Of a DNA stretch of 64,000 nt, positions 5,872 through 33,100 are shown piece after piece. Below the pieces are notes generated by a model. It was not told where the DNA came from and did no database searches. It was given only the letters and a program-made list of their open reading frames with translations. The DNA is from Clavelina lepadiformis. Its lineage: Eukaryota. The translations under genes were made by a program, and so were the position numbers. Every line of letters begins with the position of its first letter. Within the stretch, counting starts at the first letter, position 1. The stretch lies in contig NC_135244.1 of NCBI RefSeq assembly GCF_947623445.1, positions 13,142,860-13,206,859 on the forward strand, given 5' to 3'.

Positions 5872-6078
5872 CCTTGAGTCTCATAATCTCAAGGTCGTTG
5901 TTCTGCTTTTCTTAATCTTAGAATTAATTGTTCACTTTGACAACTGTATATTCTGATTATATTGAAGCTTCTTTGAACGAATACATCTAGATAAAGCATT
6001 GGTACAGCAACTACAGCATAAAGACGTCCATGTTGCGGCGTTGTTCGTAATAGCAAGAAAAAGAATGAATAACTCAAA
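5872..6078 (-). repeat. truncated solo-LTR fragment of the 16432..17990 LTR element family (inverted orientation)
   Basis: About 207 bp, roughly 90% identical to the reverse complement of LTR positions about 110-320 (ctcaaggtcgttgtt...gcggcgttgttcgtaatagcaagaa...gaataactca). Confidence 0.55.
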
Positions 6079-6299
6079 ATGCACATCAATAACCAGGAAG
6101 CAATCGATTACGTCACCCAGTGTTATGCTTCGCTGATTCGATAGATGAGAATTCTATGTCTTACACAATCTTATATTAATTTATAATATTATCACAATCT
6201 GTTTAATGAGTAGGCTACCCCGCTTCTGACAATTGCAAAAATCATAAAATTTAGGAAATTGAAAATCTGTCAGCGGAATCGGGTAACTTTTTGGGAAGT

Positions 6300-7025: not shown

Positions 7026-9195
7026 TATGATGATATTATAATTTAAATTCCTTCACTGCTGTGCAAATCTTGCTTGATCATCTGGTTTGGGTGCCTTGAT
7101 CACGCATGTTGCTTTGCTTTGCATTTGACGCACGGTCGTGCTGTCGCGTTGCCCTTTTGTTGTTATTGGTTCTATGATCTTGCTAGGATTCAGATTCAGT
7201 TATTATAGGCTAGCCTATAATAACTAGGGCGATTCAAAGTCTATAAAGTCAATTTTTCTGATTTTAGCTCGATTTGTGTTTTTGCACGGGTGATGCACAT
7301 TTTTTTGCATAATATATTCTTAAAAATTTTACTTTTCAGTTTTTCTGAAAAGAAGATAAAAACAGGTGACAGAACATAGGACTTTGACTATCAATATCAT
7401 AACTTTATGACGCATTGATGTAAAATGCTATACATATGTGTCAGCATTATAATTTAAGTAGTTAATTAAAGTGAATTTTCTGTTTTTTTTGTTCTTTTAT
7501 ATATTGTGTTGAATAAGGCTAATAATGTCAATTTTTTAAGTTTTTTAGGTCAATAAAGAATCATCCTACTAACAACTATTGTCATTAGTTTTCTATGGTA
7601 AGACAATTGACTTGGCTAATAACATAAAAGCTTGAGTCAATTGATCCACATCCGAAACCAAGGCATCAGAAAGCAAAAGTATTGTTTTTGTTGACAAGAA
7701 ACAGTGTGTTTCGGTGTTTGTAGACAACTAAATTCATTTTTTGTTGCACTGTAATGTGTTCGGAAGAAAGTATAAGAAACTACTGTTCAGTTGACCTAGT
7801 CAAAGGTCTAAATTGTGCGATAGTACATTAGGCTATAAACCTACCGGTACTATAAAAAATCAAAAAACCAAAACAAAAAATGTGTGGCAATCGGAATTTT
7901 CACTAAGGCTAGCTGGGTAATCCGTAACTGGGACTCGATCGATGAAGAATTATCTTCAGTTAACCCAGTTTTAAGTCGTGCAAAGACTTTGCTCAGTCCG
8001 AGGATGAAGATTCGGCTGTTATGCCATACCTCAATACTGAAATATAATTTAAATGAACCGACTGGAGTCAAGTCGAGTCATTTTAATTATATTCTCAAGT
8101 TAAGTCTTAATTTTCTTGAAAGGAACTCCAGACATCTTTAAAAAAGTGACTCTAGTCATTACGACTTTACCCAACTGGAAAATAGGGCAGTTTTCGACGA
8201 GCTTTTCTTAACTTATTAGAACTTGGCGTATCAAGTAAACTATTTAGCATACAAGTTAATAAATCTCGTGCGTCCAGGGGCCACACTTTCTACTATGACT
8301 ACTCTGTCCTACTAGACCCAAAAAATGAACATATAATCAACTGATTAGGTAACCATAATGGAAGATGTGGCGCCTCAAACACACATGAGATTTATTAACA
8401 TGCACACCAAACTTTTTGATTGTCACACTGTTTTGAAACAAATAAACAAAGAAAAAGCCAGTTGTTTGTAAACAAAGAGTTGAGGCTTGAGTGCACGCTA
8501 TCACCCGATGATTTGGCACAATAAAATACAATAGAACAGAAAATGGTGGAACCGAAAACGGCAACACTGGTAAACAACGACATGGAAAATATTGATATAG
8601 GAAATGACAGTACCGAAAAATGACGGCAATTAGTGGTGTTTCTTTTTAAAACTTTAATTTGTCTTTGCTCCGCAAATTTGTGCTTTTTGCTTCATGTACG
8701 CATTTAATTTACTCAAAGAATATAAAAGACTTTTATACTCGATTTGCTAGTCCTCATTAACATTTTATATCATACCGTCAAGCTGTTTCTTTTAGACTTT
8801 GTTAAATTGCTTTTCTCTTATTATATCCCTCCTTGAAACCGACAGTTTGATTAGTTTTGATTTGTTCTCGAAAACTGCTGTAATTTCCAGTAAGATTGAT
8901 TTGTGATTATTATTGGCGATTCCTGAATTTGTACTTATAAAATTTGATTACTGATAAAATTTTATTGATTGACAATCGATTATGATTACCCCAACTTTGC
9001 TTACAACCCCATTAATTTTGGGCCACAAGCTTTGTAACCGCGTTTAGTTACAAGTTTATAGTTAGGCAAGCCTTTTTAAAAATGGAAATATATAAGTTCT
9101 AAATGATTGGTTTGTCCCATAATGATTCTAGGTAGTAGAGGTAAATTAGAGTATAAATTTAATTTCATATATGGTTTGAATATACTCTTATAACA

Positions 9196-9277
9196 ATGGT
9201 AGCTAAGTTATTTTATGTGTTATACTTACTGGTTGCAATTTTCTGCAATATCACCAACATCCTTGCTCAAACTTCAA
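9196..9277 (+). CDS. CTNS: CTNS coding exon 1 (start codon, signal peptide)
   Basis: ATG at 9196. Hydrophobic [27 protein letters not shown]. Donor GTAAGT at 9278. Ends in phase 1. Confidence 0.5.
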
Positions 9278-12200
9278 GTAAGTTATATGTAAGTAGGATA
9301 TTTTTTTGGTAGTTGACATAAAAATACGAATAAGCAACAACGAAACAACAAGTTTAGTTGAGTATTACCTTTGCTGTTACAAAATGTTGCATTTCAGTGC
9401 CTTTTGTTTTATCTTGGGATGAAAGTGTGAAGCTTCTAAAAGGAGAAACAAAAAACATCACTTTCTTTTTGAACGAAGCTTTGGCAGAGCCTGTCAGTCT
9501 TTACTTGAACACATCATATAAGCATCCATCTAGTGGACCTGATCCTCTTAGTTATCCACACCAGGTACTTATGTTATAGTGAAGCAATTTTACATCTTAA
9601 GAGTACAGTGCAAGGTATATAGAGTTATAGACTTAACTTTTATATTTAAAAATGAGTTAAGATCTTTTTGTTGCTAAAATTAAATGGGTGTGTACTGAAA
9701 TTTATTAATCTAGATTTTGTCAGCTGCAAAAAGCCTTTTTGAGTTTTATTTGAGGTCACTTACATTTTAAACATTAAAAGCAAATTTTGCTATGACATTT
9801 CAAATAACTGGTTTATAGTTATGCAAACATTTTGTTGCAAAAAATTTTATACTTTACACCAGCGGTTCTTAATTGGTGCGAAATTTCCCATCTATGGAAA
9901 CTGGCACTGTCGTGTTACCAGCCAAAATAAGAGGTTTCAGACGTGCAGTCAATACCATCCGTAAACCTCTTATTGCTTGGATATGTTACACGTTTTATTC
10001 AAATTCCTGTTAAATTCCCTATAGTAAATGACCTCTACTTATGTTCTATCTATTTAAACTATATATACACATTCTGTTTGGCGTAACCTTTAAATTGATA
10101 CCACACATGATATTTTTATATTAATATAGATTAGATAAGTCATAATTAAGAGGTATGTGAAAAAGGGGCATGGTTTATGACAATAAAAAACATTGCCCAT
10201 GTTGCCAAGGTGGCACCCGTCAGATTCTTGAAGTAGACACCCTATACCAGGGGCCGGGAACTTTTTTGGCTAAGGGAGCCATGTAAGCTACATATTTTTG
10301 ATTGTATTTCCGTGAGAGCCATATAATATTTTTCAACACTTAATGCAACTAACATGTGCGTTTTTAAGTAAAACCAACAATTTTAGACAACGGTAAATGT
10401 CTGAATTACTCTTTAATAACATGCTTCTTACTGCTAATGCGACTTACAATTACAGAAAACATATTATTCGTAATAATTGTGCTAAGAAATGCCAGCTTAG
10501 ATTTATCTGGAAACCAGATGCCATCATCAAAAGAGCCACATCTGGCTCGCGAGCCATAGGTTTCCAACCTCTGCCCTATACTATCATTTTCAGCAAAAAA
10601 TTGCATATGTACCTAAACAACAATCATGTCATAATTTTGTTCAAATCTACCTGACTAATATCATTTTCTTGTGCAATAATGATGTAATAAAATTTTTCAC
10701 CAAAATACCCTTTTTCATCAAAAATTTGAATTTTTATGATTTTATTCACAAAAAAAGTATCAAATCAGATGATAATGAGTAAACAAATATAAGCAATCGC
10801 AGATACATCATAAATAGATACATATCAAACTGAACCATTATTTTAATATGACCAACGATGGCAACTAGTGGAAACTATCCGACCACAAAGGTTTAAATTA
10901 GTTTAAAATTAAAAGAATTTAATCACGGCAGTGTCTATTGCATCGAGTTGGATCCAAAAAAGTGTAGTGTGCTATTTCAGAATGCTGCTATTGCCCGGTT
11001 TCAAAAAAACGGTAGTGTGGGCCAGGAGCCAAGTGCAGATATTGTATGCATTTCAATAAAATATAGTTTTCAATGTTTTGTGGGCATAACATATAACAAA
11101 AAGTAGGTAGCAATTGCATAATAACGTAATATATAATTTAACGTTTCTAACAGCATCTACGTTACATAATTACCTAAATTTCCTAATTATTGTCAATTAC
11201 GTGCAAGACTGTTTGAAAGTGAAGAATTTTGAATTGTTGAATATCGGCATCTACAATTCCAGAAGATTCTTAATACTCTAGTCATCTATTAATCATTTGT
11301 GGCAAGTGTGACTCTGACTCTTCAGCATGGGATTCCATGAAATTTCCGAAAACGTTTGCTCACCCACTTTGCTCTATACTTTTCAACATTTTGCAGCTTA
11401 CTATTTTAGGGGTATCTGAAAGTTTTAAAATATCCTTGTTTCTTAAAATACGGAAGATTTTAACTAAATGTTTTAACGCAAGGCTCAGTTATGCACTGCA
11501 CAACATTTTGGTTGAGTTTGAGCAACTTGACAAAAGGTAAAACTGGAGGTTGTAAAACCCTTGACATGGAATGATGCATGACTTTTTTCTTCTTGACGCT
11601 GGTTATTTGTTTTTGGTAGATTGACTTTGGTACAAATGTTACGAAAAAGTATGTACCCGTCACAGGTGCAGTTGTCGGCCAGATTGTTATTAATGTCACA
11701 TCAACTCAACTAATGTAAGAAACATTTGTGCTAATATTGATAAACGCTATTACTTTGCTTTTCAGTAAAATATGCTTTTGGTAATTACAGCAACTGGTGA
11801 TGTCATTATATTTAATACTTGTTCCCATACAGTGTAGCCTATATAGTTTTAGTGTTATAGTAATTTTAAGTTTAACCATTTTATGTTTATATAGTAATTA
11901 AAGTATTTCCATAACCAAAGTTCTTCTTTTTGTGTTAGACTTCCTGACAAAGAAAATCTAACAAACACTATCCGTGGATATGTTGTACGAAGTTACACAC
12001 TTACTACTATTAACACTGTCATTGGATGGGTGTATTTTGTTGCTTGGTCTGTCTCATTTTACCCACAAGTTGTTTTGAACTTTCAACGTAAAAGGTTTGT
12101 TTGCTTTTGCGTAGTTCTATCATTTGGTTTTTGGCACAAAGATGGCAGAAGAACAAATACAGTATATTTTTATTTCTTGTTTTTATAGCGTTATTGGACT

Positions 12201-14046
12201 AAACTTTGACTTTTTGGCTTATAATGTTACGGGATTCATTGCATATTGTCTTTACAATATTGGGCTTTTTTGGATACCTGTTGTTAAAGTAAGTTATCGA
12301 ACACTTGACATGTTTTCTTCTGTACGGTTATTATGCATTTCTTCAAAAGTGTTTGCTCAATGGTTACCTTTTTTATTTTTCCCAAATGGACTTTACAGAA
12401 ACAATATTTAAAGCAGTTTCCAGAAGGTGTTAACCCAGTGCAGCCCAATGATGTGTTTTTTACAATCCATGCTGTAATTCTGACTGCAATTACTATTGTG
12501 CAATGTTTCATTTACCAAGTAAGTACTTTGCAAATAATAGTAAATGTGAAAAATTACTATAAAAAGATACATTTCTGCTTGGTAAACATACCATTTATTG
12601 TTCTCTGTTTATCTCCAGCATGGTGGTCAAAGAGTTTCTCGTTTTGCAATGGGACTGCTTTCTGCCACAGGACTTGCAGTATTTGTCCTGCTATTTGTTG
12701 CTGTTGGACAAAAAATTTCTTGGTTGGAATTTCTAATGATTTTGTCATATGTTAAACTTGGAGTCACTTTGATTAAATACATACCTCAGGTGGGTTACTG
12801 GGCGTTTTAAGCATTTTTGTCACAGTCTACAACTCTACATTATATTTTAAAGAATAGAATAGGATTCTTATTGCAGGACAAAGCAGCTCTCTCGTAGCTG
12901 CAGTTAGTTTTAAGTTTTAGCAGTTAGTTTTTACGCTTTTAACTTCATATGTCAAGGCTTTGATACTCATGTTCAAGTTATGAATTTTAGTCCATATGAC
13001 TGTCGCTTATCACAAACAACACATTACTAGTCAGTAGTACTACAGTATGCGTTGGTACTATTTAGGATACAAGAAAACATTAGTTTTTTAGATTTAAATG
13101 AGAATTTCACACCAAAATCCAACGTGGTCGTTGTGGAATTAAATTTTAAAGTATTGGTCTCTTTTATGTTATACAAAAATTGTTCTGTAGCTAATTATTT
13201 TATAATACAAAATTGTTTTTCTACTTTTTCATGAAACACAATGTCAGTTATCTTTTCACGTTGTATGGCAGCTGAAAACAGTTCAGCAAAGCTAAATACG
13301 AAGTTGAAATACAGCTTCGCACAAAAAATCACTGCACAAACTAAAATAACAAAATTTGGAAACCAACACTAATGCCGTTATTAAAATCAAGCTTTGATGT
13401 TAGTTACAAAATACAAAACAATACAATATGCAAAACATCACAGTGGCAAATAATTGAAAACATAGTTTTTTTGTTTCAGCTCTACATGAACTATAAGCGC
13501 AAAAGCACGGTTGGCTGGAGTATTGGCAATGTGCTGCTGGATTTTACCGGTGGAAGTTTAAGCATTTTACAAATGATCCTTCAGTCGTACAATAATGGTA
13601 CTGTCAAGCAAGTTTAGTTTAGTGCTTTAGTACTGTGAAAGCTCATTACCTCCACACTCTATAGATCAACTGCACTAACTTCAGCTTCAGATACTTTACA
13701 AACATTCAACTTGGGATATAACGAGTGAATTGAAATCTGTAGGCATATTTGTAGCCGCAAAAGAGTATCATGAACAACTTATGCAAAAATAGTTTTCACT
13801 AATTGAAAGTAATGTCAAAAAGCAATTAATAAATTATCTCAATGTACGATGTTTTTAAAGTTATGCTTACTTTTTCCTCTAGATGAGTGGGACTTGATCT
13901 TTGGAGATCCAACAAAGTTTGGTCTTGGTCTTTTCTCAGTTTTGTTTGATGTACTATTTATCATCCAGCATTATATTTTGTATCGACATAGCAGGAAGCA
14001 AGATTATGTAGGATTGCTATCTGAATCCAATGAAGCTGAGGAGTAA
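9196..14046 (+). CDS. CTNS: cystinosin (lysosomal cystine/H+ symporter, PQ-loop family) gene, 9 coding exons
   Basis: Spliced translation aligns end to end with human cystinosin, for example [152 protein letters not shown]. All junctions are GT-AG with consistent phase. CDS is 1173 nt (390 aa). Stop TAA at 14044-14046. AATAAA at 14186 and 14213. Confidence 0.85.
9398..9564 (+). CDS. CTNS: CTNS exon 2 (lumenal N-glycosylated domain)
   Basis: Acceptor AG 9396-97. In frame with ORF 9358..9579 ([23 protein letters not shown]...YPHQ). Donor GTACTT at 9565. N-x-T/S sites. Confidence 0.7.
10248..10573. mobile_element. hAT-type MITE (326 bp) with 8-bp TSD, inside CTNS intron 2
   Basis: TIRs CAGGGGCCGGGAAC... 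and ...GGTTTCCAACCTCTG (imperfect inverse). Perfect direct repeat CCCTATAC at 10240-47 and 10574-81. No coding capacity. Confidence 0.7.
11620..11714 (+). CDS. CTNS: CTNS exon 3 (lumenal domain)
   Basis: AG 11618-19. [31 protein letters not shown]. Donor GTAAGA at 11715. Phase 0 to 2. Confidence 0.65.
11939..12094 (+). CDS. CTNS: CTNS exon 4 (TM1 and first PQ-loop)
   Basis: AG 11937-38. [51 protein letters not shown]. Donor GTTTGT at 12095. Confidence 0.85.
12189..12288 (+). CDS. CTNS: CTNS exon 5
   Basis: AG 12187-88. [34 protein letters not shown]. Donor GTAAGT at 12289. Anchored on ORF 12124..12411. Confidence 0.85.
12399..12518 (+). CDS. CTNS: CTNS exon 6
   Basis: AG 12397-98. [40 protein letters not shown]. 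Donor GTAAGT at 12519. Confidence 0.85.
12619..12789 (+). CDS. CTNS: CTNS exon 7 (second PQ-loop)
   Basis: AG 12617-18. [57 protein letters not shown]. Donor GTGGGT at 12790. Confidence 0.85.
13480..13597 (+). CDS. CTNS: CTNS exon 8
   Basis: AG 13478-79. [39 protein letters not shown]. Donor GTACTG at 13598. Ends in phase 1. Confidence 0.85.
13883..14046 (+). CDS. CTNS: CTNS exon 9 (terminal)
   Basis: AG 13881-82. [54 protein letters not shown], then stop. YVGL fits a Y-x-x-hydrophobic sorting signal. Confidence 0.85.
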
Positions 14047-14218: not shown

Positions 14219-15662
14219 TTCATAAGTATTCATTCTTCGCTTCCATGCTCGTTGGCGATTTACTGTATTATACAGTTAATGTTTTGAGATTCATTAACAA
14301 TTTTTTGTCATTTTCAATGTTTTGAGGAATATATCATTTGCATAAATATTGCTTTTTATAAACTGTTGATTTAAACGTAACGTATTACTGTAATGTTAAA
14401 AAGTGCAATTAAGCTTTTTTTTAAATATTTTATGTGTATTCATAATCATCTGTAACATTAAATATTGTCAGATAAACAAAAAGCACACTGTGCCTTTCTG
14501 GTGTGACAGTTCGCATTTCCGTATGCAGACTCACGTGTCAAACTGATTTTTGTTGGTTTAAGTTTTGGCTGTCACTATTTTTTTCTGGTCGCATTCTTGG
14601 GTTAGGATGAAATATGACTTTTTGATTTCAATTTGAAGTCATAAGTTTGACGTTGTATTGCAAGAGTTAGAGGTACTAAAGTGCCATGCAAAATTTTAGG
14701 GAGCCCCATGCAGGATTTTTCGATTACAGTAATTTCATTTTATAATAAAAGAAAGAAAGAAATCATGGGTTTTTAGGTCCTGCTATGCAAAATACCGAAA
14801 TAGTCACTTTCGCATAAGCGTACCATTTTTTCATCGCTTAAAAGGAAGACACGTTCCACCACTAAACGCTTGCACAGTTACTTTAGGATTGCGTTGATGG
14901 GATGAGACGAAGTTTTTCAAAAGCATGATCTAAACTTCCCTGGTTAACTACCCTCCCAAAGAGGCGCGTAGGGCAAAGAAATTGAGTTTTGCAATATATC
15001 CGCAATAATAATGTAAGAAACATCTGGGGCGTCATTATGCAACTTTTTCATAAATATGTGTATTACAAAGAGTTTCCAAAAATAATTGCAAAGTATTTGC
15101 GAACGAGGATATGGCAGATTGTTTTGGTATTACGCAACATTTTCGCAAAATGTTTGTAGACATGGAAGAGAGAAAGAAAAACTTAACTTTTTTTGGCACG
15201 CAAAATGGTGTACGAGACCACTGTTGACAATCAATGGATAATGATGTCATAAACCTATACCACAAAACAAAATTCGAATGGATGTTGTTCAACTTACTTG
15301 GTATGTCGAATATGATTAATTGCATTTTGGATAATCGCATGAAGAGCACAAATGCCAAACCATAGTCAATCATTTGTGAAGATAATACAAATGGTTTATT
15401 GCATAAGCCGCTTAATTCAAAGGTAACTTATTCATTATAACCAAAGAGATTTAAACACAGTGTTTAAATCTCTTTGTTATAACCGAATAATTATTGAAAA
15501 GTTTTTGAAAGGTAAAATTGAAAACAACATGCACTGGGAGCGCACACGCAATGCGAAAGCTTTGTTACGGAACAATAAAACAGACAATGCCCATTAAAAG
15601 CATTAACAGGTGGCGGTCATTACGCAGCCACTAACATTCGCAATGTTTTGGTTTCATTTAAA

Positions 15663-16201: not shown

Positions 16202-16381
16202 AAAATGACTGAAGCAGGAGCAAGCAAGGGGAAAGATTTATCGTTATCTGACAAAATTCTTGTCATTGGCGAACTTGACAAGAAAACATCTCATATCGCA
16301 TTTGCCAAAAAGTCACAACTATCACCAATTTTAAAGTCCAAAGAAAAACTTTTGACTGCACATCGTAAACCCATCGCGTAA
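16202..16381 (+). pseudogene. pogo/Tigger-type transposase N-terminal HTH (CENP-B/psq-like) fragment
   Basis: MTEAGASKGKDLSLSDKILVIGELDKKTSHIAFAKKSQLSPILKSKEKLLTAHRKPIA resembles the KRKxLTLxEKxxIIxxxExGxSxxxIAxxFGxxxSTxSxIxKNKEKI box of pogo-family transposases. Truncated by the LTR element at 16432. Confidence 0.35.
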
Positions 16382-16431
16382 AAGGGCAAGAAAGAGTACT
16401 CATGAAGATGTAGAAGATGTTTTTTTAAATG

Positions 16432-16825
16432 TGTGATGATATTATAAAATTGCTTGCAAATCGAATGCCGCATAGAATACTTGTTTACGGAAACCGCTTT
16501 CATGAAGCGTGACATAACAATTGTGCATGCCTATATTACGTGAGTTATTCATTCTTCTTGCTATTACGATCGACGCCGCAACATGTTCGTGTTTATGCTG
16601 TTGCTGTACCAATGTTCTATCTAAATGTATTCGTTGTAAGAAGCTTCAATATAATCAGAATATAAAGTTGTCGAGGTGAACAATTAATTCTAAGATTAAG
16701 AAAAGCGAAACAACGACCTTGAGGCTCATTTACATCGAGGACATTAAACATTTCTACGGACAAACATTGTAATTGAAGTGGTCGCCCTTACAGGTTAAGC
16801 AGCGATAAACAACCTTTTCATTACA
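16432..16825 (+). repeat. 5' LTR of TRIM-like element
   Basis: First about 320 bp are identical to the 3' LTR; last about 75 bp are only about 75% identical. Confidence 0.65.
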
Positions 16826-17597
16826 ACTGTTTATGGTGCCAACGAGTTCGGTGAGAACTACGCTTTTCTTTTATCGAAGAACCTATGAACAATTAAACTT
16901 GAGGTTGAGAAAAGTCTAGTGATCTCAGACTACAAGTTTCGAAGATATGTCTTATCTACAACCTATGCCACACTCATTGGATCCAGCCGACGGACATCTC
17001 GACAACATGATTTTCGGTCATATCAACCTCAATGACGGTGACGAAGAATCGCCTAGACTAGAACCACCTTTGGATGCAAAAATGACCGACAAACAAAGCA
17101 CGCTGAACCATCCACTAGACGTGGCAGGCCAGTGAAGAAACTTGATCGGTATTTGGACATTCAGTAATGATTTTTTGTTTATTCTATATATATATCGTAG
17201 CGTGTTGTTTATTTGCTGTATGTTTTTGGTCAAGCCTATAAAGCATAACTTGAGTCTTATGCCTAGGATATTGTCCATTTGTAACGCTGTCAATTTGTCG
17301 TGCCTCTCAAGGGTTTAAAAGTACCTGTGGTAGGAATCTCTGACAATGTGATATTACGTTTATAATAGCGTTATTGTACAGATTACGCTTAATTGATGGT
17401 GGCTTAATTGCCATACTCTCTAAACGGTTAAGTCATGCCGTAGAGAAATATTTCTTTGTGTTATTTTGTTATGCTTTAAACATAGCGGTTGTTTTCGGAA
17501 GGTTGAAAAATACCCGAGGCTAACGCCGATATACACTATGTTGATCATAAAATTGCTTTAAAATTGCATTTTTAAGCAATTTTCTGGGGGGAGGTTA

Positions 17598-17990
17598 TGT
17601 GATGATATTATAAAATTGCTTGCAAATCGAATGCCGCATAGAATACTTGTTTACGGAAACCGCTTTCATGAAGCGTGACATAACAATTGTGCATGCCTAT
17701 ATTACGTGAGTTATTCATTCTTCTTGCTATTACGATCGACGCCGCAACATGTTCGTGTTTATGCTGTTGCTGTACCAATGTTCTATCTAAATGTATTCGT
17801 TGTAAGAAGCTTCAATATAATCAGAATATAAAGTTGTCGAGGTGAACAATTAATTCTAAGATTAAGAAAAGCGAAACAACGACCTTGAGGCTCATTTACA
17901 TCGAGGACATTAAACAATTTAACAGACAAACATTGTAGTGATTTGGTCGCACTTACAGGTTAAGGTACTACAAACAACCATTTCATTACA
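17598..17990 (+). repeat. 3' LTR of TRIM-like element
   Basis: See the 5' LTR. Confidence 0.65.
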
Positions 17991-19063
17991 AATGGTTTAA
18001 GCAAGCTAAAGGTGGAGGTCTTGTGATCAGTGGCCCAATGTTATGTGAAAAAGCAAAAAACTTGGGAAAATAATTAATAGATGTAAATTATGATCTATCA
18101 ATGAGCAGGGTTATTCGTTGGTGAGATCGCAATTTAATCGTGAGCATGATGAGAAACAAGACCACGACATAATATAATTGAAATCGGTATACGGAGTAAA
18201 ACTAATTCAATATGAATAGTAAACCGTTGGTGTTAGTTCACCAGAAGAAAAATAATTTTTTATCACTTTTTTTATTTTTGTACTTTTGTTGTGGTCCCCC
18301 GCAATATGTACACAGATTTCCGCCACTACACATACATATGAAAATACATTTCGTTCAAGGCATTTTAAAGCGATATTTGAAGCGCAAAAACACTTGGCGC
18401 ATTTAGGGCGGGGTAGTCAAGCTCGAATTTTAAAACCAATTTTTAAATCTTTTTGGCTCCTGTCAACGCAACCCCAAATACGCATGCATGCTAACAATAC
18501 AGTTTTACTTGCTGACGTATCATACTATTCTCAGTAGTCATCGGTATTTTAATATTTTAAGTATAGGGTAATTGTGCAATTGTTTATCGAACAATAACAA
18601 TGGCTGGCTTATCTAATTAGACCTACGAAAAGGTGTTGGAGTGTATGAAGCTAAACTTGGCACGCATGCGCATAAATTATAATTTTACAAATTAAAGATT
18701 CCTCACCAATGCTGGGCCCCAGGTCACTCCACCATGAATCCAGGACTGTTTGGTCCCCATGCGGTTGTCATGTGGTCCCACTCGGTATAATTCACTACTC
18801 ATTCGGCATTTAGTGCAACCCCAAGTCCCCAATCGAGCCTGTACATTGTGTAAGCACTAGGAATTACCTTGCTTTATTCCTTACGGTGTATTGAGTGAAC
18901 TGGATAGGATAAAGAATTCATCATGGTATTTCTTTAAACGAAACAGACAGGAAAAAACAAGTTTTCATTCGCTTTATATTGTGCGCAGCTCTGTATGAAG
19001 ACTTTTCATTATAAACGTTCTCTGTGAACAGTTTTTGTATTTAAGTGGATTATGAGTAAATAA

Positions 19064-20983: not shown

Positions 20984-21121
20984 ATGTGTAGTTTAAGAAA
21001 AAGTGAGAGTGACGTGGAAGTAGAACTTGGCTTACATCCAGCGAGGCGTCCTGTTAACATTGAAAAGGATGTGAGTTCTTTAGGACAATCAAAAAGAGTC
21101 TCAAGCATTCTAAGAAGCCCA
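20984..21121 (+). CDS. ADD: ADD exon (N-terminal; ATG at 20984 directly after an AG)
   Basis: [46 protein letters not shown], like human ...MMEQKKRVSMILQSP. Donor GTAAGT at 21122. Confidence 0.75.
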
Positions 21122-24100
21122 GTAAGTTGCATTGATCATCAAATATGTGGTATGATGCACCGTAAGTATAGCTACTTGCCTGAACATTGCGTGGAGATAC
21201 TAGTCTCTAACTTCAAAATCTGCTGTACATCCAGCTTCTCTAATTGAAATTGTTAAAGGCATGTAAAGCTTGTTACTGTACTGTTGGCTACATTTTGTTT
21301 GTTGAGTAGTCCAGTGGTTCTCAATCTTTTTCACCATCGGGCCGGTAACATGAAATTGTTTGTAATGAATGCAACAGATTATCAAAATCCTTTTTGTAAG
21401 ACGTTATTTTCATAAACATATATTTGAAATTACAAACAACAAAATGCCAATCAATGTGCAAAAAGAATTGAAAGTGATTTATCAAAGTTAGTGGAAAATC
21501 TGCGGTTTCACTGCTTTCGTATTTTAGTATGCTTCTATTGATAGCATGAAAATTGTCTAAACATTTTAATTACTATTATAGTATTTCAGGTGCATGTCGT
21601 CAATTTTCACACTTAAAATAAATCAAACATGGTAAAACATTCCTCCTTTGAACTGTGTTTAAAATTGTATGCCTAAGATCAATGTGGTACTAAAGTTTTT
21701 GTTGTTTTGGCTTTTTTTTACAAGTAAATTACTTTCCAAGTCCCAACACTGTGCTTCCAATCTCATTTATATAATATTAAAAAATGTGTTATAATGAATG
21801 TTGTGATTATGCATTTTCATAAGAGCAGCCACGGATAAGAAAGCATTGTTAATGAAAGCATGACTTCATTGAGTATCATAAAGCACTAATAACTTGCATT
21901 GGTTGTTTAAGTATATAGTGTCCAGCATTACGTTTTTATGTGAGTGATTTGTATGAAATGTCATCATAAAAACATGGTAGAGTTTTATTTTTTTCTCAAT
22001 GTTGCTTATGCTCTGTTTTCAGTTCTTTCTTCAAAAATGAAACCTATTATAAATCATTTCCCCTCAAACAATGTAGTTTTTGTTTAACTCAAAAGTAATT
22101 TTTGGCACTTCTATGATAATTGCCAAATATGTTTAGAAGTCTTTCTTACTCAAGGTGTCTCCATTGTCGTAATTATATGTAGGGCTACTCTTGTTGTACA
22201 AACTGCTTATTTCTTTGCTTAGTTTTACTTCACCCACAGAAGTGGCAAATTGCTTTAACCTGTGGTGGTTAAGGCAACATGGTTGTGCCATTTGTACATA
22301 CTGCTAATTGCCTAATTTTGTGTAGGCCTATAATATAAACGTGTGCCTCTTGTGAACCGATTAATTCAATTCGTTTTACTTCAGTTAAGTACAAATTTTA
22401 TCTATGTTTTTCGTTTCATTGGTAACGTTGATCTACATACAGCCCAAGTGGAGAAGTATACGGAACTTTGGCAGAAGTCAGAGAATCTCAGACTCATAAC
22501 GCGTTTTTCTAAGTTCGCTTTTTTCCTGTTGCCTGTTAAGTGTCTGTCTATCAGTTTGCTTCTCAGTGAGTTCCCTAAGCTTTTCCTGAGGATGCCTCGC
22601 AACAATGATATCCATCGTTTACCACAAACCTATTTAATGTACCTAAATGAATTAACCTAGTTCAATTGGTTTGATACATTTAAATGCCAACATAATATAA
22701 TAATGATACCTAGCTAAAGAAAAGTGCATTTTTTGGATAGGATTTAGGCCACGAGCCATCCCATTTTGATTTTCAAAAAAGTGATCCTAAGCCTTCAGGC
22801 TGCTGATTTTGTGAGATCACGTTGGAAAAGCACACCACTTTATCGCCAGTGTTTTCTTTCTAACCTTGTTATTTTTGTTGTGGGAAGATCTGAATGTAAT
22901 ACATGATCGTCTGTCATTACTATTACAGTTTGGTTAAGTGTATAACCATAATATCACAACAAAACTTTTCTGTTTTCACTTCTGCATTTTGTTTTGTAAA
23001 GGATTTTAAAGAAGAGCTTGAGACAGTGGTGACGGATTTACTGAGATCTGATAAAGCAGGAAATCATGTTTTTGCCAATGCAATCGCAAATGTGATTTCT
23101 CCATTTGGTCAAGCTGGATATGCAGGTAAATGCTAATGTATTTAAGTAGTACTGTAACATGACTCATAGATGTATGTATAAAACCTACAGTGGAATCAGA
23201 ATATGCGCTAGTCACCAAATTAGTTACACTAGCGTTAATATTGCATCAACATAGTTCATTAAAAAAAAAAAACGCTGAACTATAAACTATGCACGTGCAT
23301 TGAAAATTTACATTTAACAAAATGTGCTGGTGTAAAAAATGCATTTGATTCTCCACCACAGATCGTGGAAAGATTCCAGTCCGCTATCACCGCCACAATA
23401 GCACAGCTATACAGATATAGGTGGCTTCATTTCATTGTCATACATGACAGCAACCCACTCTGCCAATTTAGTGTCGGTAGTACCTAAAACTTGAAGTGTT
23501 GCACATTCATTTTTATACAAATCAATGATATTTTTCCGTATAACAATACTTTTTTCAAAAAAAATGCAATGAAGTTTTGTAACATTTGCTAATGGTGGTG
23601 ATACTTCAAGTGACTGAGATATAACTGTGACTTCTGTTTTTATCTGGGACTCTGCAATTGAGAGAAGTGTAATAGCTGATGAGCTAAGTGCAAAAGCTTA
23701 TTCAAAGGATTTCATATCATTGACAAATCTTCTACGAGTCTGAACTCAATTGTAAACAGTTCTCTTCACCGTTCCTCCATCTACAGCCCTTTACCATGCC
23801 CACCTTTCCATACTTTCCTACTTTTTTCAACTTTTCATACTTTCCAACTTTTTCCATAGCCTTACCTCTTGTAGAAGCAGAACCAAACATGCTTTCTGAT
23901 AAGGTTGCCTTTGCTAATTTTGCTTTGCATTTTCACGCTGTTTTCTTTTTTGTAATTTTTGTGTTTCTCTCCCTTTATCCTGCATGGTTTTAAGCTGTTT
24001 TGGTGTAAATCTTTCTTCCCTTTTTTCTGCCTTTTCTCTGTATTTCCTTATTTCCACCCTATATTTTTCTATGTTTGCAACTTTTGGCTTTTTTCTTGAT

Positions 24101-27100
24101 TTCTTTTTGCTTTCTGCTGCATATCATTTTTAGCAGGTTAGTTCTACCAACTCTTTAAAAACAGAATGCTATCTGTATTATTTTTCAAAAGTAATATAGT
24201 AACCACAAGCAGTAATTGCCAATTATCAAGTACATAGTTCCATTTTTTATGTAACAATTGCCTTTTTACAACCTGCACCTTTTTAACTTACTGAATTTAT
24301 TGCGTGACGCTACAAGACAATTATGCTTGTGTGACACTATAAGACAAAATTATCCTGACAACTACTCCATAAGTTCATGTCAGAAACAAACAAAAAACTC
24401 AAAAATAAATGCCACCATATATAAAAGAAACTGGTAAAATTTATTTTATTAGAATCATTTATTTTGTCAGTGGTGCTAAAAAACATACAATTTTGTGACA
24501 CTACAAGACATGTGATTGCTACTACTTTTTTGTTGAATAATTTTAAATTTTGTCAAATAACAACAGCGGCATTTCAAGTTGAGGTATGACAAGACATGTT
24601 AAAACCTATTATACTCATACAAAATTGCATGGAATTTCAATGCCTTAAAGCAGTGATTCCCAAACTGTGTGCCGCCACAGATTCTCAGGTGTGCCGCGAA
24701 TCTTTTTGGAATTTTGGAAAAGAACTGTATAAATATTTAAAATAAGGCATGCAGACAAGCATATGCGACTTAAAAGCTTTCTAGCTGCTTCAATAGCTGA
24801 GAAATAAGCACATGTGACGATGAAACCAATTATGGCATTGTCGATAGAGTAGGGTAATTTTTTAAAGCAACATTTCTTCTCTTGTAAGTGTGCCGCGAGC
24901 GTTTTCTAATTTTTCTAGTGTGCCACAAGCTGAAAAAGTTTGGGAACCACTGCCTTAAAGGAAAATACGATATGAAAATACAATAAAAAATTTTATTAAA
25001 ATTTTTTAATTTTTGGGTTTATTGAAAAGCAGTCTAATAATATAATTAGTCAAAATGTTTCAAGAATTCTGTACTTTAGCTTATGTTTAGTCCATTGGTG
25101 CAACATAAATTTAATTTAAATTTAAATTCTTGACTTATTTCCTAGTTGATATTTTGTGAAATTTTTCCCTTCTGGTCTTGCCTGATGGAGCTTTGTTTTA
25201 CTTACTGTATATATTATATACATTCATTATTTTATAATATATTATAAATAGTTATGTTGTTTTTATTGAATTTAATGCTGGTTACACTAGTATTTTGTTT
25301 TTGATTTTAATAGTAGTATGATATGTTACCAGGAAATGCTTTACATCCCATGAAAACAGGTGATATCTATAACTCTGGCACAAATTATTATCATAAATTT
25401 GTTGCCATGCATGTTGTAATTAACGTTATAATTTTGATTTTGGTATCATCTCAATGTAGGTTTCTGCAAAGTACACACTAATAAAACATCACAAACTTGC
25501 TTGATCATGTTGGTAAACGGCATTTTGATTGCAGTTTTTTCATGGTGTGTGGATGCATGTATGCCCATCTGCCCCATCATCCATAAACATTGACTTGTGC
25601 TAAAATAGTCATAGGCTTGATATTCACTCAGTTGCTATGAGAATTTCAAGTCTTAAAATGCACCTTTAGTTTGTATGTTTTCTGTCTGCATTATTATAAG
25701 TATATGAGCCTTATTAATTGCAATGAAAGCTTTGTTTTGAATTAGTATTGAATTACTTTTATTTATTTAAAATCTGCACATATATAATATAGATAAATTT
25801 CTTAATCAACTTTAAAGATGGTTGTTTGCAATATAAACATGAACAGTCTTATTGCTATTAGTAAATGGCTGATTGAACTGGCAGTAAACTTTGATATATA
25901 TGCGGTATGAATTTTTGCAAAGGTTTGCACAATGCGTGTTTCATATAGGAAATTGTTTCATGTTTATGGAAATTTATTATGTTAGAGCTGTAATTTTATT
26001 CTTTTACACTATCAAGTTACATGAAGTAATTTGTTTGGACAGTAAATCATAGCCTAACACATGAATTATCTTTACAACTTGGAGGGTAGAAATTTGTTAT
26101 GTAACTTCAAAATTAAATCCAAATTAGATTTTGTTTTTAAAAGTTCTGTATTTCAATTTGATTAATATGATATAATTTCACAGATACGGTATTATTATAA
26201 CATAATTCTTGAGTATATGCTTGCAGTATGCATAGTATTTGAATGTGACATATCACATATACATATATAATTCATGTACTGGATACGTATACATATTTGG
26301 GCATAGCTACAGTTGGCGTCAACATAGGTCACTTGCATTGGTGAGAAATTTGTTTGTGCAATACAATAAAGCATATTTTGCTTTTACAGGCATAGGCTGT
26401 GTATCACCTATCAATGATCTTACTGGTGCAGACACATCCATGTGCTCTAAAGGAGAGAAGTTGCTTCGTTGCAAACTAGCTGCCCTCTATCGCATTGTTG
26501 ACCTTTTTGGCTGGTCATCCACTATATACAACCACATTACTGTATGATTTATGCTACGACAACTGACTGAATTTATCTTGATAGCAAACTTTGTACTTTA
26601 CCAACCATTTAGCTTTAGTGGTGAAGAAATTCTTTTTTCTAAAAGCATATTAAAAGAAGTTACTTTGGTTTGACATAAATTATATCAATGATGCTTATTT
26701 TATCAAATTTAGTTTACGGAGCTATAACATGTAATATGTGTGTAAGTGTAATATTATACAGTTAAATTGTTAACTGCCCGATTGAAATCCACTTAAAACT
26801 AATGTGTTTACCCTTAATTTATGCTGTTACCTATCTGCTCTAAATCAATCATTAACTTTGTAAATAGGTCCGAGTGAATCAAGAACAAGAACATTTCCTC
26901 ATCCACCCCTTTGGTTTACTTTACCATGAGGTGTCAGCGTCAAAATTGTTGAAAGTGAGAATGTGCTTAATGTAATATGATTTTTAATGACTTTCCAAGT
27001 AAAATCATTAAATTCCCTATGCATTTTAAGTATTTGGTCATGCTTTTCACATATATTCAATATATAATCTTTATGCTTATCATTTTCCTAAAGTTGCAAA

Positions 27101-30100
27101 CCAGCAAACATTTTTACTATTATTGAAAGTCAATGTATAGGGATGAAAATAAAACAATATTCCTTGAAATAGGAAATAACTATTTCCTTTCACATAGGTC
27201 AACATGCAGGGAGAGGTTGTAGACTCTGGTTCAACAACTCTTGGCTTTAACTTGTCAGGTTATACTCTTCACTCTGCTATTCATGCTGCTCGACCTGATG
27301 TGCATTGTGTTATTCATGTGCATACAACTGATGCTATAGCTGTACGTAAAATTTGAAATTTTGGAAAAAAGTTTGGGACATGCATTTTTCAGAAAACATG
27401 TAACACTTTATCGTATTCTTGTCAAACAGATATCTTGCATGGAAGGTGGCCTGTTGCCAATATCACAAGAAGCGCTTATTGTTGGAGATGTTTCGTATCA
27501 TAATTACCATGGTATCCTTGTTGACCAGAAGGAGAAGAAAGCTATTCAGAAACATCTTGGGCCTACCAACAAGGTTCTAATGAATTGCCTTGCCTGATTA
27601 GGCTTCCACTTCCCTTTTGCTCATTTTAGATACTTCATCCCTTGATTATTTAATTGATTTTGCCTGAATAAAAATGTTTCTTCAACAACCACAAGATCTT
27701 GCAATAGATCACACTTAATGGAATGGTTACTTATCTACTTCATATTTATTGCATTGTTATATTACCATAGTGTGTTAAATTATGGTCTTTGCAATGTATC
27801 TATGAGTTTGATTTGTTGTTAAAAATGCTTTCTCAATGTCAATTTGGTGTACAATCATTTGGTAAATAAAAGTAATAATGCAGCTTAAGTACACATTAAT
27901 TGGTAATTTTCTTCAAAGTACATAGGCATTGGTTGTAAATTATTAAGGACTAAGGAGGCCGTTTATCATATGTTATAGGTAATGATTCTTCAAAACCATG
28001 GACTGGTTGCTTGTGGAGAAACCGTAGAAGAAGCATTCCACTACCTCTATTTTACCATGATGGCATGCAGTATTCAGGTAAATTTGCTTTTTGTTTTATT
28101 GCTGAATAGTTAATTTTTACATTTAATGGATAATGGTTGTTGTTGCTTTTTATTTTATTGCTAACGTTTAATCTGTACATTTAGTGGAAATGGTTGTTGC
28201 TTATGTTTTTTTACATTGCTATACTTTTATTTAAAGATGAAAGCAATGTCTTGTGTGAAACCTGACAAGCTAATCCATTTGAATCGATCTTTGCTTAAGT
28301 CTCGCACAGAGGAGGTTGGCAGAAAAGATGTTACTGCTGGCGTTGAAAGTTCAATTAAATGGGGTCCTGGTGAAATGATGTTTGAAGCTTTAGTTCGCAT
28401 GTTAGATGACATGGTATGATTGTCATATATCATTTGTAATTTACTTTTGCGTTTGTGGAGCTTGTCATGTTCACCGTGCAGCATTTTGTTCTCAGTCATA
28501 TCTTAGTTTTTTCAGTTTTTTTCCCTCAATCAGAAAGGTATAAAATATAGATATTTAACTAAATTATTTATGATTGAAGCAAACTTTTATAGTCTGTCAA
28601 AAATAATATGGCAGTTTTAGATGTAATAACTGTTGTAAAATTGTAAACTGGCTCAAGAAAAAATATTTTGCCAAAACTAATTGATGTAGAGTATTTTTGT
28701 AAGAACAGGTATTTGAGCATGGGGTCCGTTATTTGCGGAGTGCTCATAAAGTTGGGGGGCATGGTCAATATGTTGTATGTAAACCATTTCTTTAACTATT
28801 AAAAAAACTATGGAATGAAAATGTTGGTGCCAGGCAGCATTAAATTGAATTTTGAACCATATTACTTTTGTCTACCAAAGTCTGTTGGAGGCTATTTGTG
28901 GTTTCTAATGAAGGTTGTAAACTTGTTATGTTAACTGCAGTGTAACACTTTGTGTAAAACGTTTCATTATACAGGTATATTTCTCCAAGAAATGTTTGAT
29001 TGAAAGGTTTAGAAATTTATTTAAAACAATTGTTGTGTATCATCTCATTCATGTATATGTATAACATTGTATATTATAAATAGTGTTTATAGTTTTTTTG
29101 GGCTACAGTAAAATATGAAAAACAATTTTCATCATCGTGGATAAGTTTGACAGACAACTGTAATCAAATATACTTACCTTAAGCTATGAGTTAGCAAGAA
29201 ACAGCTTAAATGAAGTGCAATATTACCTTATTTTTGCTTACTTACTAGTACATGCAGATTTTTTGGAATGTTTTATTTATCATTCTCCTTTTGCTTGATA
29301 TATACTTTTTTATCACGTATTATTTTGTGCAATAAGGGTTATCGCTCTGGGTATGTGTATCGCAATCCCATTCTAATGAAGCAGAAGCCAAAGCCTAAGA
29401 GTGGTGTTGAAGTACCTGCAACTGCTGTGGGCCATACAGCTGTACTACCTGAAGACCTGGAAGGTTTGTTCATAACTATAGCTGACTTACTTGCATCACC
29501 ATTCTCTGTATGTCCACAGCTATTTTATCATGATTAGTTAATATTCAATGTACTAAAGAAAATGAATCTACATAATTTTGAAGTTATGACACAAATTAAA
29601 TTTTCTCTAAATTTTGTGGCACACTTGCTTCATTGTGGTTTTTATGTTAGTATAGGTCACTTGTCACTTTTTAGCATCTCCTGTCATTACAAAAGAGATT
29701 CTTTGTGGAACAGACTTCAAATAAATGTGCTCATGATCACAAATTTAATTAATACCTCAAACTATATTATGAAAGGATAGGTTCTCCTAGAAAAATGCAC
29801 CCTTTTATTTTCAAAATTTCTTTATCTTATAGACATAATCGCATATGTCCAATGGCCATGCACTTCATAATATCACCATAATGGGTGTAGCTTCAACCAT
29901 ACACTTGAATAGTTTGTTTGCCAATAAAACTGATACTCTATCTTTCTTTGACTGATTGCACACAATTTGCTATGCTAATGCTACACTATATTACACACAA
30001 ACTGTACTTTCAAGTACCTTTTTTATAGATAAGTTTGAAGATACGTTCAACTCAAACTGATTTATTCCAGATGCCCATGATTCTCTTAAACCCACGACAA

Positions 30101-33100
30101 AGGCGCACTGGGTGAACTCACCTAACCAATACACTCGTGTTGTTCAAGCTGTTGATGAGGAACCAGTTTCAGGAGCTTCATCGCAGAATGGTGATGCTAG
30201 CCCACGAGTGAAAGCAAAGGTAAAATGGAATTTTCTTGGTTCACTAATAAGCTAAGATTTCACTGGTTTTTATAGGTTAAAGTAGGATGAGATATTAACA
30301 CAAATGTGTTTCAGTGGAAGAAAAGTGAAGACCCCGGTGCACCCCAAACCACTTCAGTTCGTATTGCGGGCCCTAACCAATTTGTTCCTACTAACACTGA
30401 CCCACGGGAAGTTCTAGCATTAAGACGAAGTGTAAGCATCAATCCTACTTATTATTGTGACAATTGATTAGTGATTATTTTATTACTGTTACTCTTGACA
30501 GAACATCATAGTGCTTATTATTAAGTATATACAAGTATAAATTTTTAATTACTACTGTATCTATGTTGTATATCTGTATGTTGTTGTATGTCTTTATGTG
30601 CACTTACTCTTATCATGGACGAGTTACGGATTGTTTTATTTAGATTCGTGGCCAAGGCAAGAACAGAGCTGGGCCGCAGTCACAATTGCTTTACAATGTT
30701 TCACCAGACAGAAGTCAATCTGTAAGTTTTTAGAGTTAATCTTTGTTATGCCAGGCCAGTGGTTTTGGGTTAAAATGGTTCTTAACCACTTGTGAACTAA
30801 GTTACGTGTGTTTTTGTTTGTTAGCTGTTACTGATAAAATTCTTTCAGGTATATTCAACCATTGCAGTTTAGAAGTTGTTCGTTCCACTTGTGATATTTT
30901 TCATGGTAAAGAAAATTGCATAGAAGTGGACATTGTTTCTTATAATTTGATGTGATCCTCATTTTTCATTTCTTTGATTCCATTGCTATCCAAAAAGTTT
31001 TGTGTGGCTTGTAGAAAACCAAAATCTTTGTTAACATGAAATTCAGGTTTTAGGTTCACAGGCACATTTTATTCATATGCTATCAATACTGTAAATGCAA
31101 AGCGGCTTGTTGGCTAGAATGGTATTATAGTTGATTGCATGGTTTCTATCGCATGTATCTTTCTACTTGATCAGCTTGTAATAAGCTCATTAGCACTGAA
31201 CCCCTTATTACTATGTTAAATGTGGCATGTCAGGATAAGGTTGTCGTGCCGTCGGGGGTTTGGAAGCTTTTGACAGAACACTTTACCAAACGGTTTTCAT
31301 ACGGAGGTTCATTTTTTTAGAGGTTTCACCACACGTACAACTTAGATTTTAGTTTGTGCCCAAGAAAACACACCTTACAACATATAAATGTGTGGTATAT
31401 ATAAATGTGTGTAACACAGGGATGGCCAACAAGTTGATGGCATTTGATTTTGTGTTGACTTAAAAATATTTCTAAAAAATTTTTTCCGTCAAAAAGTTAT
31501 TCTTGTAGGCCTATGGCAGTGATTCCCAAAGCATGAGTCGCAATAGGTCAAAAAATGGGTCGCATCGAGGCGATGCAAACCTGGATCTCAAAGGTCAAAA
31601 ATGAGTTGTGTTGTATACTTCCAATGTTCCTTTTTTCTTCTTTTCAAGTTCTTTGATGATAGAATAAAATGTGTATGATGCAATAATTCAGTCTATTAGA
31701 AAGAACTATTGCATCATATACATTTTATCCAGAGTTTTACAGCTGCATGGTAAAAGATAATGTGGCTGTAAATTCACAGCAAAGATTAGTTGATTATGGT
31801 GCTATTTTGGAGTAAAGTTATTAGCTTACTGTTTTTACCGTGTTTTGTTAAAGGCTTACTTAAGTTAAAAGGTTAATAGTTGTGATGCAATGCTGAATAG
31901 TTTAATGTTGGTAAAAATGTTGATTTAACGGACACAACGGGTAGGTAAATAGGTCAGTGGAGTCAAAATACAGTAGCCTACATTGTTTCATAGTGAGTGG
32001 ACCACACTAAAACTGCTTGTCTGTGTCTGTAGTGTACATACTTGAGAAAAGAGTATATTGCTGACATTGTGTTTTATTTTCAAGTACAAAATTAACTCTG
32101 AAATATCAAAATACCGCTTACTATGGTAATTTGTTGTAAATATAAATCCATCTGCACTAAAACAGTCACAAAAATTTGCATTATGACTTTTGTTCTTTGA
32201 CTTCAGTGCCGGCTGGTGTCAGTGGTCGATCGCAAGTTATCAGGAAATTTTCTAGTCGATCCAAATCAAAGAAATGTTGGCCACTCCTGCTTTAACATAA
32301 TGTTTTTTTTTAAGTTCTAGCACTTATTTGAGATTTATTTTTCTTTTCATGCATGTAATTGAGGGCTACAATGAGCAAGTCAACTTAAGCATTGATGAGC
32401 TCTTATATTTATGGCTGCATAGTGATTGTTACTCATTTGATTGGGTTAAATACCATTGCTTGCTTTTGTTAAGCTTTAAGTTCAGTTATTCATAATTATC
32501 AACCTCTTTGTCTTCACAGAGTAATCAAGTTGTTTCATCAAGCAAAGCCATTATTCAGAAAGGCCAGGAAGTGGAAATTGTGTCCCCAATGGGCCCACCC
32601 AATCCATTTAATGAAATGTCAAGCAATGGCCTAAAAAAATATGAAAAGGAAGTGTGTGGAGGTATCATGAATTTTTAATATACATAATTACAATTTATGT
32701 TTGTTTGTGCGAATTCTGTTATTTTGTGATTATTTTTTTTGTTGCGGTATATTTGATTCATTTGTTGTTTCGCCTCATACCATAGAAAGTCATGTCAAGA
32801 AGGATCACAGCCAGGGTGATGCTGAAGTGACAGAAGAAAAGTGTGCGCAGGTTGAATCAACCACAAAACTCAATGCTTCTGAACCTGCTCTTGCAGCAAT
32901 CCTGAAAGTAGAAGGTTTGTTACTTTTCTAAAGTTTTCTGCATTGCGTTACAAGCTGTTCAATTTAGATTGTGTAGTTGCATGTTATTATATCATGACTC
33001 TTGTAGACGCACATCACGCTGACAAAAACACAAAAGGTGCTACGGCAGAAGCAAAGAACGTTACAACTCAAAAACCGAAGTTGGACAGTGACGAAACTCA

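Follow-up and report, generated by a model that had tools for sequence, protein, structure and literature searches.

A young, non-coding LTR retrotransposon of Clavelina lepadiformis whose two terminal repeats end in different family haplotypes

The element at the locus

The 64,000-nt stretch of Clavelina lepadiformis DNA analysed here (the window; contig NC_135244.1, positions 13,142,860 to 13,206,859, RefSeq assembly GCF_947623445.1) carries a 1,559-bp long terminal repeat (LTR) element at window positions 16432-17990, with LTRs of 394 and 393 bp around a 772-bp interior. The element is a genuine, recent, non-coding LTR retrotransposon of a Clavelina repeat family. It is an ordinary young mobile element, lodged in a defunct transposon that has a cystinosin-like gene on one side and an adducin gene on the other. 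Its two LTRs end in tails that belong to different haplotypes of that family. The parts of the element and of its insertion site are listed below; U3, R and U5 denote the unique 3′, repeated and unique 5′ portions of an LTR, and their boundaries in this element are presumed.

16205-16431, plus strand: left half of the interrupted pogo/CENP-B-like helix-turn-helix (HTH) relic, a decayed pseudogene (from the rejoined alignment)
16428-16431, plus strand: left target-site duplication, AATG (4 bp)
16432-16825, plus strand: 5′ LTR, 394 bp, TGTGAT...TTTCATTACA; these termini are common to all family copies
16432-16750, plus strand: stretch over which the 5′ LTR matches the 3′ LTR with 100% identity in a global alignment (319 bp)
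16650-16667, plus strand: TATA-like TATAATCAGAATATAAAG, a presumed promoter element, kept in every LTR subtype
16743-16748, plus strand: ATTAAA, a presumed poly(A) signal, 2 nt before the mosaic breakpoint
16751-16825, plus strand: divergent 5′ LTR tail, presumed to be the end of R plus U5
16834-16840, plus strand: TGGTGCC, 8 nt after the 5′ LTR, a leftover of the primer-binding site of the family
17586-17594, plus strand: polypurine tract GGGGGGAGG, separated from the 3′ LTR by TTA; purine-rich at the equivalent place in all copies
17598-17990, plus strand: 3′ LTR, 393 bp
17917-17990, plus strand: divergent 3′ LTR tail
17991-17994, plus strand: right target-site duplication, AATG (4 bp)
17995-18170, plus strand: right half of the interrupted pogo/CENP-B-like HTH relic (from the rejoined alignment)

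An earlier note, made from the letters of the window, had described a real, young LTR element with an AATG target-site duplication, and the hallmarks bear this out. The direct repeats at 16432-16825 and 17598-17990 have TG...CA ends, both opening with TGTGAT and closing with CATTACA, the polypurine tract GGGGGGAGG lies 3 nt upstream of the 3′ LTR, and the 4-bp duplication abuts both outer termini. Placing the end of the LTR at ...TTAAACA (position 319), with the tails as non-LTR sequence, was rejected: every family LTR reaches TTTCATTACA, and the duplications sit there.

Evidence for a single insertion event came from reconstruction of the empty site. Removing 16432-17994 fuses ...GAAGATGTTTTTTTAAATG to GTTTAAGCAAGC..., and one extra nucleotide in a T/A run at the junction was needed to keep the rejoined relic in frame, which is no surprise in a host relic that is a decayed, stop-containing pseudogene. 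The resulting translation, ...KRARKSTHEDVEDVFLKWFKQAKGGGLVISGPMLCEKAKNLGK..., can be aligned through the junction, with no gap there, to the human CENP-B DNA-binding domain (1HLV; E = 8.3e-6). Pfam CENP-B_N (E = 0.044) and HTH_Tnp_Tc5 (E = 0.004) follow one another in it as they do in pogo transposases, although neither match reaches its curated cut-off. Since the flanks rejoin into a continuous HTH, the element, including its divergent 3′ tail, is a single insertion and not a segmental duplication. The proposal that it interrupts a pogo-like HTH fragment therefore holds. The earlier note had also considered repeats belonging to a segmental duplication devoid of LTR hallmarks; the hallmarks are present in all family copies, and homology between copies ends exactly at TG and CA.

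Other members of the family were reached through annotated open reading frames (ORFs). A search with a 62-aa interior ORF of the window element matched four proteins, three from C. lepadiformis and one from a marine metagenome, and a subsequent profile search gave more; P0129, returned by the profile search, is an unrelated chitin-binding protein. Seven further complete copies were recovered from C. lepadiformis (loci L001, L002, L003, L005, L007, L008 and L009), together with L006, a more distant partial copy from the same species. The family loci are 75-92% identical to the window element, and L001-L003 and L005-L009 each come from a different C. lepadiformis contig, eight in all, and have unrelated flanks. 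Complete copies span 1,465-2,058 bp, open with TGTGAT and close with (T/C)(C/T)ATTACA, and carry a purine tract followed by TTA or TTG before the 3′ LTR. Perfect 4-bp duplications flank seven of the eight complete copies, the window element included. The duplications of the others read AATC, AAAG, AATT (twice), AACT (twice) and AGCT, the last being the imperfect one, at L007. In the copy at L009 (6080-8001) the LTRs are identical at 372/372 positions, the 18-nt primer-binding site is intact and the duplication is AACT, which indicates that the family was active very recently.

LTR tails as family haplotypes

Alignment of the two LTRs of the window element reveals a sharp boundary. The first 319 positions are identical (319/319; 16432-16750 equals 17598-17916), and the last 75 contain 14 substitutions and one 1-nt indel, all at LTR positions 320-384. 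Random placement of the 15 differences would confine all of them to the last 75 of 394 columns with a probability of 1.6e-11. The earlier note had given bodies identical over about 320 bp and tails about 75% identical; the former figure stands, and the tail identity is 60/75, or 80%.

Two lines of evidence bear on the nature of the tails. First, for 8 of the 15 sites that differ, each of the two states is also present in other LTRs of the family. The CATTTCTAC of the 5′ tail is also found in L006, the GTAG-TGA of the 3′ tail in L006 and in the 3′ LTR of L001, and the AAGGTAC of the 3′ tail in L003-type LTRs; private states number two in the 5′ tail and five in the 3′ tail. Second, the interior of the window element carries few private substitutions, 12 in 476 aligned positions (2.5%), compared with 10 for L002 and 17 for L003, copies whose LTR pairs differ by 3.4% and 1.9%, respectively. 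Had each lineage changed by 10%, approximately 48 private interior substitutions would be predicted in those 476 positions. The low private interior change and the shared polymorphisms together show that the tails are two family haplotypes and not products of decay. The same interior change and the 319 identical LTR positions show that the element is young. The earlier suggestion that the tails differ through exchange between family members, and not through gradual decay, is thereby upheld. By distance to the L002 type, neither tail is the closer (8 vs 7 sites), and neither is marked as the native one.

The note had proposed aligning the 3′ ends of LTRs among copies, and this comparison showed that tail haplotypes are shared and that the tail mismatch recurs in L008 and L007. 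In L008, six LTR differences all lie in the last 75 columns, with none in the first 297 (p = 7e-5). A patch of six sites lies in the tail of L007; the 5′ LTR agrees there with L003 at four sites, and the 3′ LTR with L008/L009 at three. The two LTRs of L001 belong to different subtypes (46% identity) and stand within an AATC/AATC duplication, and in L005 every LTR difference lies in the first third of U3. LTR differences are scattered in L002 (13) and L003 (7), and L009 has none. Clusters were thus found in copies without other LTR differences (the window element, L008 and L005) and were absent from the clearly older L002 and L003; of the four haplotype-type clusters, three occupy the final fifth of the LTR.

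Whole-element comparisons indicate that the copies are patchworks of modules, with two U3 heads that cannot be aligned to one another, two types of R/U5 and blocks of the interior whose affinity switches. From copy to copy, leader and interior share 89-98% identity. A patchwork family of this kind is the pattern expected from co-packaged RNAs and template switching by reverse transcriptase (PMC6894440). The recombinant “clans” described in that review likewise exchanged U3 heads, R/U5 tails and interior blocks between lineages. A difference is that the model for those clans ends with identical LTRs, whereas several Clavelina copies have unlike LTRs within one insertion.

Origin of the mismatch

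In the standard model of reverse transcription, both LTRs derive from one minus-strand template and are therefore identical at integration (PMC6894440). An intermolecular first transfer links the R/U5 of one RNA with the U3 of another (PMC6894440), and an intermolecular second transfer, yielding a provirus whose two LTRs differ, was put forward for HIV-1, the type 1 human immunodeficiency virus (PMC5651808). The explanation that we tentatively put first, and to which we give a little less than an even chance, is that the LTRs of the window element already differed at integration, having been copied from co-packaged, non-identical family RNAs. Under such a scheme, each LTR tail would be copied from a different template, and the U3 parts would be identical since both would come from one U3 template. 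This could happen by an intermolecular plus-strand (second) strong-stop transfer. Alternatively, in a route that we propose here, the minus strand, after an intermolecular first jump, would run into the intact R-U5 of the acceptor RNA, leaving in the 5′ LTR a mismatched R-U5 duplex that would later be resolved to the second haplotype.

Mismatch at birth is supported by the age distribution of the clusters. They occur in LTR pairs that are otherwise free of differences and in none of the older pairs, the opposite of what a process accumulating with time would produce. A rough calculation for an age-proportional process gives a chance of about 0.006 that three of the four clusters would fall in no more than 12% of the summed age. 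The inferred outcome resembles that of the pathway proposed from HIV-1 recombinants, in which the 5′ and 3′ LTRs come from different templates, as inferred here for the window element and for L001, L007 and L008 (PMC5651808). HIV-1 differs in being a retrovirus, the pathway was deduced from the patterns of next-generation recombinants and not from proviruses with two different LTRs, and no experiment links it to the Clavelina family. It is conceivable, and we hold the view with distinctly less than even confidence, that a sizeable share of family insertions are born with non-identical LTRs from two co-packaged RNAs, by second-strand transfer or through a mismatched R-U5 duplex.

Several observations weigh against mismatch at birth. 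The standard model predicts identical LTRs, and the second transfer of retroviruses is generally intramolecular. Transcription would be expected to start about 30 nt past the conserved TATA-like element, near LTR position 258, and the breakpoint lies at 319/320; the read-through route thus needs parents that were identical over approximately 60 nt of R, or patchy mismatch repair. The read-through route also leaves unexplained the L005 cluster in the first third of U3. The L007 patch stops short of the LTR end, and in L008 the tail that seems out of keeping with the remainder of the element is the 5′ one and not the 3′ one. The 4-bp match flanking L001 may be due to chance (roughly 0.1), as all duplications start with A. 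Interpretation is also made challenging by the sample, since only eight complete copies, drawn through annotated ORFs, give weak statistics for timing, and by the source of the data, which is assembled sequence.

The leading alternative, which we consider possible and somewhat doubtful, is that the LTRs were identical at integration and that a short tract was overwritten later by inter-element gene conversion or recombinational repair. The template could have been another family copy or free complementary DNA, and the most feasible target would be the 5′ LTR tail, which is flanked by the conserved leader. Conversion within and between elements is the usual explanation of clustered LTR differences (PMC7251063), the high identity of leader and interior supplies homology beside the 5′ U5, and a single mechanism would cover every cluster. 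The L005 cluster in U3 and the L007 patch, flanked by identity on both sides, resemble conversion tracts, and the breakpoint falls just past the presumed ATTAAA and not at the TATA-predicted start site. However, the clusters lie mainly in pairs without other differences and not in the older ones, and three of the four are confined to the final fifth of the LTR. Conversion of the 3′ tail of the window element would leave no more than 10 bp of homology distal to the tract, and no donor was found among the sampled copies. In plants, possible converted regions have been predicted in 25% of LTR pairs, and there, too, differences and identities are clustered along the pair and distort divergence-based dating (PMC7251063). 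The tracts reported from plants mostly span 100-1000 bp and were recognised by identity that was not expected, whereas in Clavelina it is difference that is unexpected, in a block of 65-75 bp at the end of the LTR and in otherwise new-looking copies. Overall, mismatch at birth is slightly favoured over later inter-element gene conversion, a choice that eight copies cannot settle. The earlier note had left template switching and gene conversion side by side; its exchange between family members is borne out, and these data do not separate the two.

An assembly or consensus artefact, in which reads from other copies were merged into one LTR tail, is very unlikely. Repeats are the usual site of such errors, but a 1.56-kb element can be spanned by single long reads, and the sharp 75-bp block of mismatch adjoins unique flank, where reads anchor. 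The analogous copies L007, L008 and L001 come from a PacBio HiFi/hifiasm assembly for which polishing is not mentioned. Less probable again is an old insertion, in which the LTRs would have diverged in place by about 20% and the first 319 bp would later have been homogenised by conversion between the two LTRs of the element. Such intra-element conversion is common in LTR elements; nevertheless, the reading is largely refuted by the 12 private interior substitutions where about 48 are expected and by the 8 of 15 tail differences that are shared family polymorphisms, and the converted tract would have to reach LTR base 1, where the outside flanks have no homology. Finally, an origin in two pieces, by segmental duplication or by recombination fusing neighbouring elements, could yield copies with unlike LTRs such as L001, and a lone 4-bp match is weak evidence, but for the window element it is refuted by the reconstructed empty site with its one continuous CENP-B-like HTH alignment, and eight loci show LTR hallmarks with independent flanks and no tandem repeat is present.

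The mismatch matters for dating. The whole LTR pair of the window element is 3.8% divergent, and with the tail excluded the divergence is 0%; the first value would date the element as old. If tails are often mismatched from birth or through early exchange, as three or four of the eight copies suggest, dating by LTR divergence would be biased in this genome, and the family would lend itself, as a natural system, to the question of how often a new insertion receives its two LTRs from different RNAs. If the mismatch does arise at birth, LTR divergence is not zero at time zero, and the family would provide natural genomic evidence for a reverse-transcription pathway so far only indirectly inferred for HIV-1. 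The recurrence of mismatched tails in new-looking copies offers retroelement biology a modest lead and calls for caution in LTR dating.

Coding capacity, relatives and surroundings

The interior of the window element and the rest of the window contain the following further features of the family.

16947-17135, plus strand: remnant of a 62-aa ORF common to the family, with no sign of purifying selection and no Pfam match
17111-17167, plus strand: frameshifted tail of the ancestral ORF, STRRGRPVKKLDRYLDIQ and a stop, in frame in the distant copy L006/P0130
5887-6196, minus strand: truncated LTR of the same family and another subtype, lacking roughly the last 90 bp (80-89% identity)

Since the STRRGRPVKKLDRYLDIQ tail is out of frame in the window copy and in frame in L006, the shared ORF is a decaying remnant. 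Selection on it was rejected: pN/pS, the ratio of nonsynonymous to synonymous polymorphism, is approximately 1 (pairwise 0.44-2.3), and its conservation is no better than that of the surrounding non-coding DNA. No copy encodes gag or pol, and Pfam searches with the interior peptide and the family ORFs found no domain. Database searches with the shared ORF recovered family ORFs only. Exact look-ups of two LTR-borne ORFs and a protein search with seven concatenated element ORFs returned nothing, and no Rfam family matched. In the absence of gag and pol, the proteins of an autonomous element must copy this family, so that its mobilisation would be in trans.

The best lead to the ancestral or autonomous element is L006, whose ORF is uninterrupted over about 100 aa and runs in frame to ...FTRRGKPVTKPARYLDTP and a stop (ending ...RRGKPVTKPARYLDTP). 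That copy, at 8850-10353 of its locus, has a 553-bp 3′ LTR and a 5′ part that is apparently rearranged. A tail of the form ...RRGRPVKKLDRYLD, the LTR ends and the primer-binding site are traits to look for in an autonomous partner. Two exact-pattern scans of Joint Genome Institute (JGI) metagenome contigs, with the LTR end and with the ORF core, gave no match.

The family primer-binding site is an 18-nt sequence, TGGTGCCCCGAGTGAGGA, that lies 3 nt after the LTR in L003 and L009, the two best-preserved copies, and that may be complementary to the 3′ end of elongator tRNA-Met, judged by the human sequence. No transfer RNA (tRNA) genes were found in the window or in the family loci. A deletion common to the window element and L002 has left only TGGTGCC, and the TGG-initiated stretch described earlier as resembling a primer-binding site is therefore present as a 7-nt remnant of the full site. 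Most leaders also hold a degenerate second “LTR end plus primer-binding site” (TTTCCATTACAAGTGTGGTGGAGCCGA), about 55 nt past the true one (L003 3838-3920, with equivalents in L001, L005 and L007-L009; compare window 16826-16855). The window element and L002 look like the result of a deletion between both leader copies, yet both lineages transposed.

A terminal-repeat retrotransposon in miniature (TRIM) is by definition an element of less than 1000 bp in total with terminal repeats of 100-250 bp (PMC6934838). At 1,559 bp, with LTRs of 394 and 393 bp (1,465-2,058 bp across the family), the window element exceeds both limits. It resembles TRIMs in being non-autonomous, in having two terminal direct repeats, target duplications and no gag or pol, and in its many dispersed copies. 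It differs in the larger size of element and repeats, in keeping a decaying ORF remnant and in its 4-bp duplication; plant TRIMs make 5-bp duplications. Large retrotransposon derivatives (LARDs), in the Wicker classification, are non-autonomous LTR elements of more than about 4 kb, and an element of 1.56 kb falls between TRIM and LARD in size. The family therefore comprises dispersed, small (1.5-2.1 kb), non-autonomous LTR retrotransposons that are TRIM-like, as first described, and too large for a strict TRIM; the window element adds to a known type, the small non-autonomous LTR retrotransposon. A duplication of 4 bp would fit gypsy or BEL elements better than copia, which is a lead to the superfamily.

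A cystinosin-like PQ-loop gene has exons at 12124-14046 (plus strand), which stop 2.4 kb upstream of the element. Its closest protein in the database is only 82% identical, which places the gene outside the annotated Clavelina protein set. On the other side, a tblastn comparison with a human ADD1 probe gave clear adducin exons from 26392 onwards (26392-32654, plus strand) and a possible N-terminal exon at approximately 20984-21247. The nearest recognisable adducin coding sequence is thus at least 3 kb from the element, and not about 1 kb downstream as previously proposed. No sign of a host function of the element was seen at this locus.

The minus-strand LTR piece had been noticed before as a related, inversely oriented fragment at 5872-6078. 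It is indeed a truncated relative on the minus strand, and it is longer, extending over 5887-6196, where it retains the TGTGAT start and ends near LTR position 300. It stops close to the 319/320 breakpoint of the main element, and a small palindrome, CCTTGAG...CTCAAGG, lies at its end.

A few smaller observations concern the family and the window. All eight target duplications start with A, and seven of the eight with AA, in the orientation of the element, an orientation-biased target preference. The presumed poly(A) signal is AATAAA instead of ATTAAA in one LTR of L002. Directly before the polypurine tract of the window element, AAAATTGCTT and AAGCAATTTT form a hairpin with a 10-bp stem (17549-17584) whose stability is not significant (z = -1.5); different hairpins occupy this position in other family subtypes, and RNAalifold gave no support among the copies for a shared structure. 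The metagenome match, L004 (European Nucleotide Archive ERZ23493314), is a 621-bp marine contig that is 92% identical to the window copy and has a 173-bp deletion, and it represents animal DNA inside a metagenome assembly. The G+C content of the window, 35.2%, agrees with a published 35.6%. About 1 kb upstream of the element, at 15428-15490, lies a near-perfect palindrome with arms of 31 nt that are 81% complementary and stand 1 nt apart.

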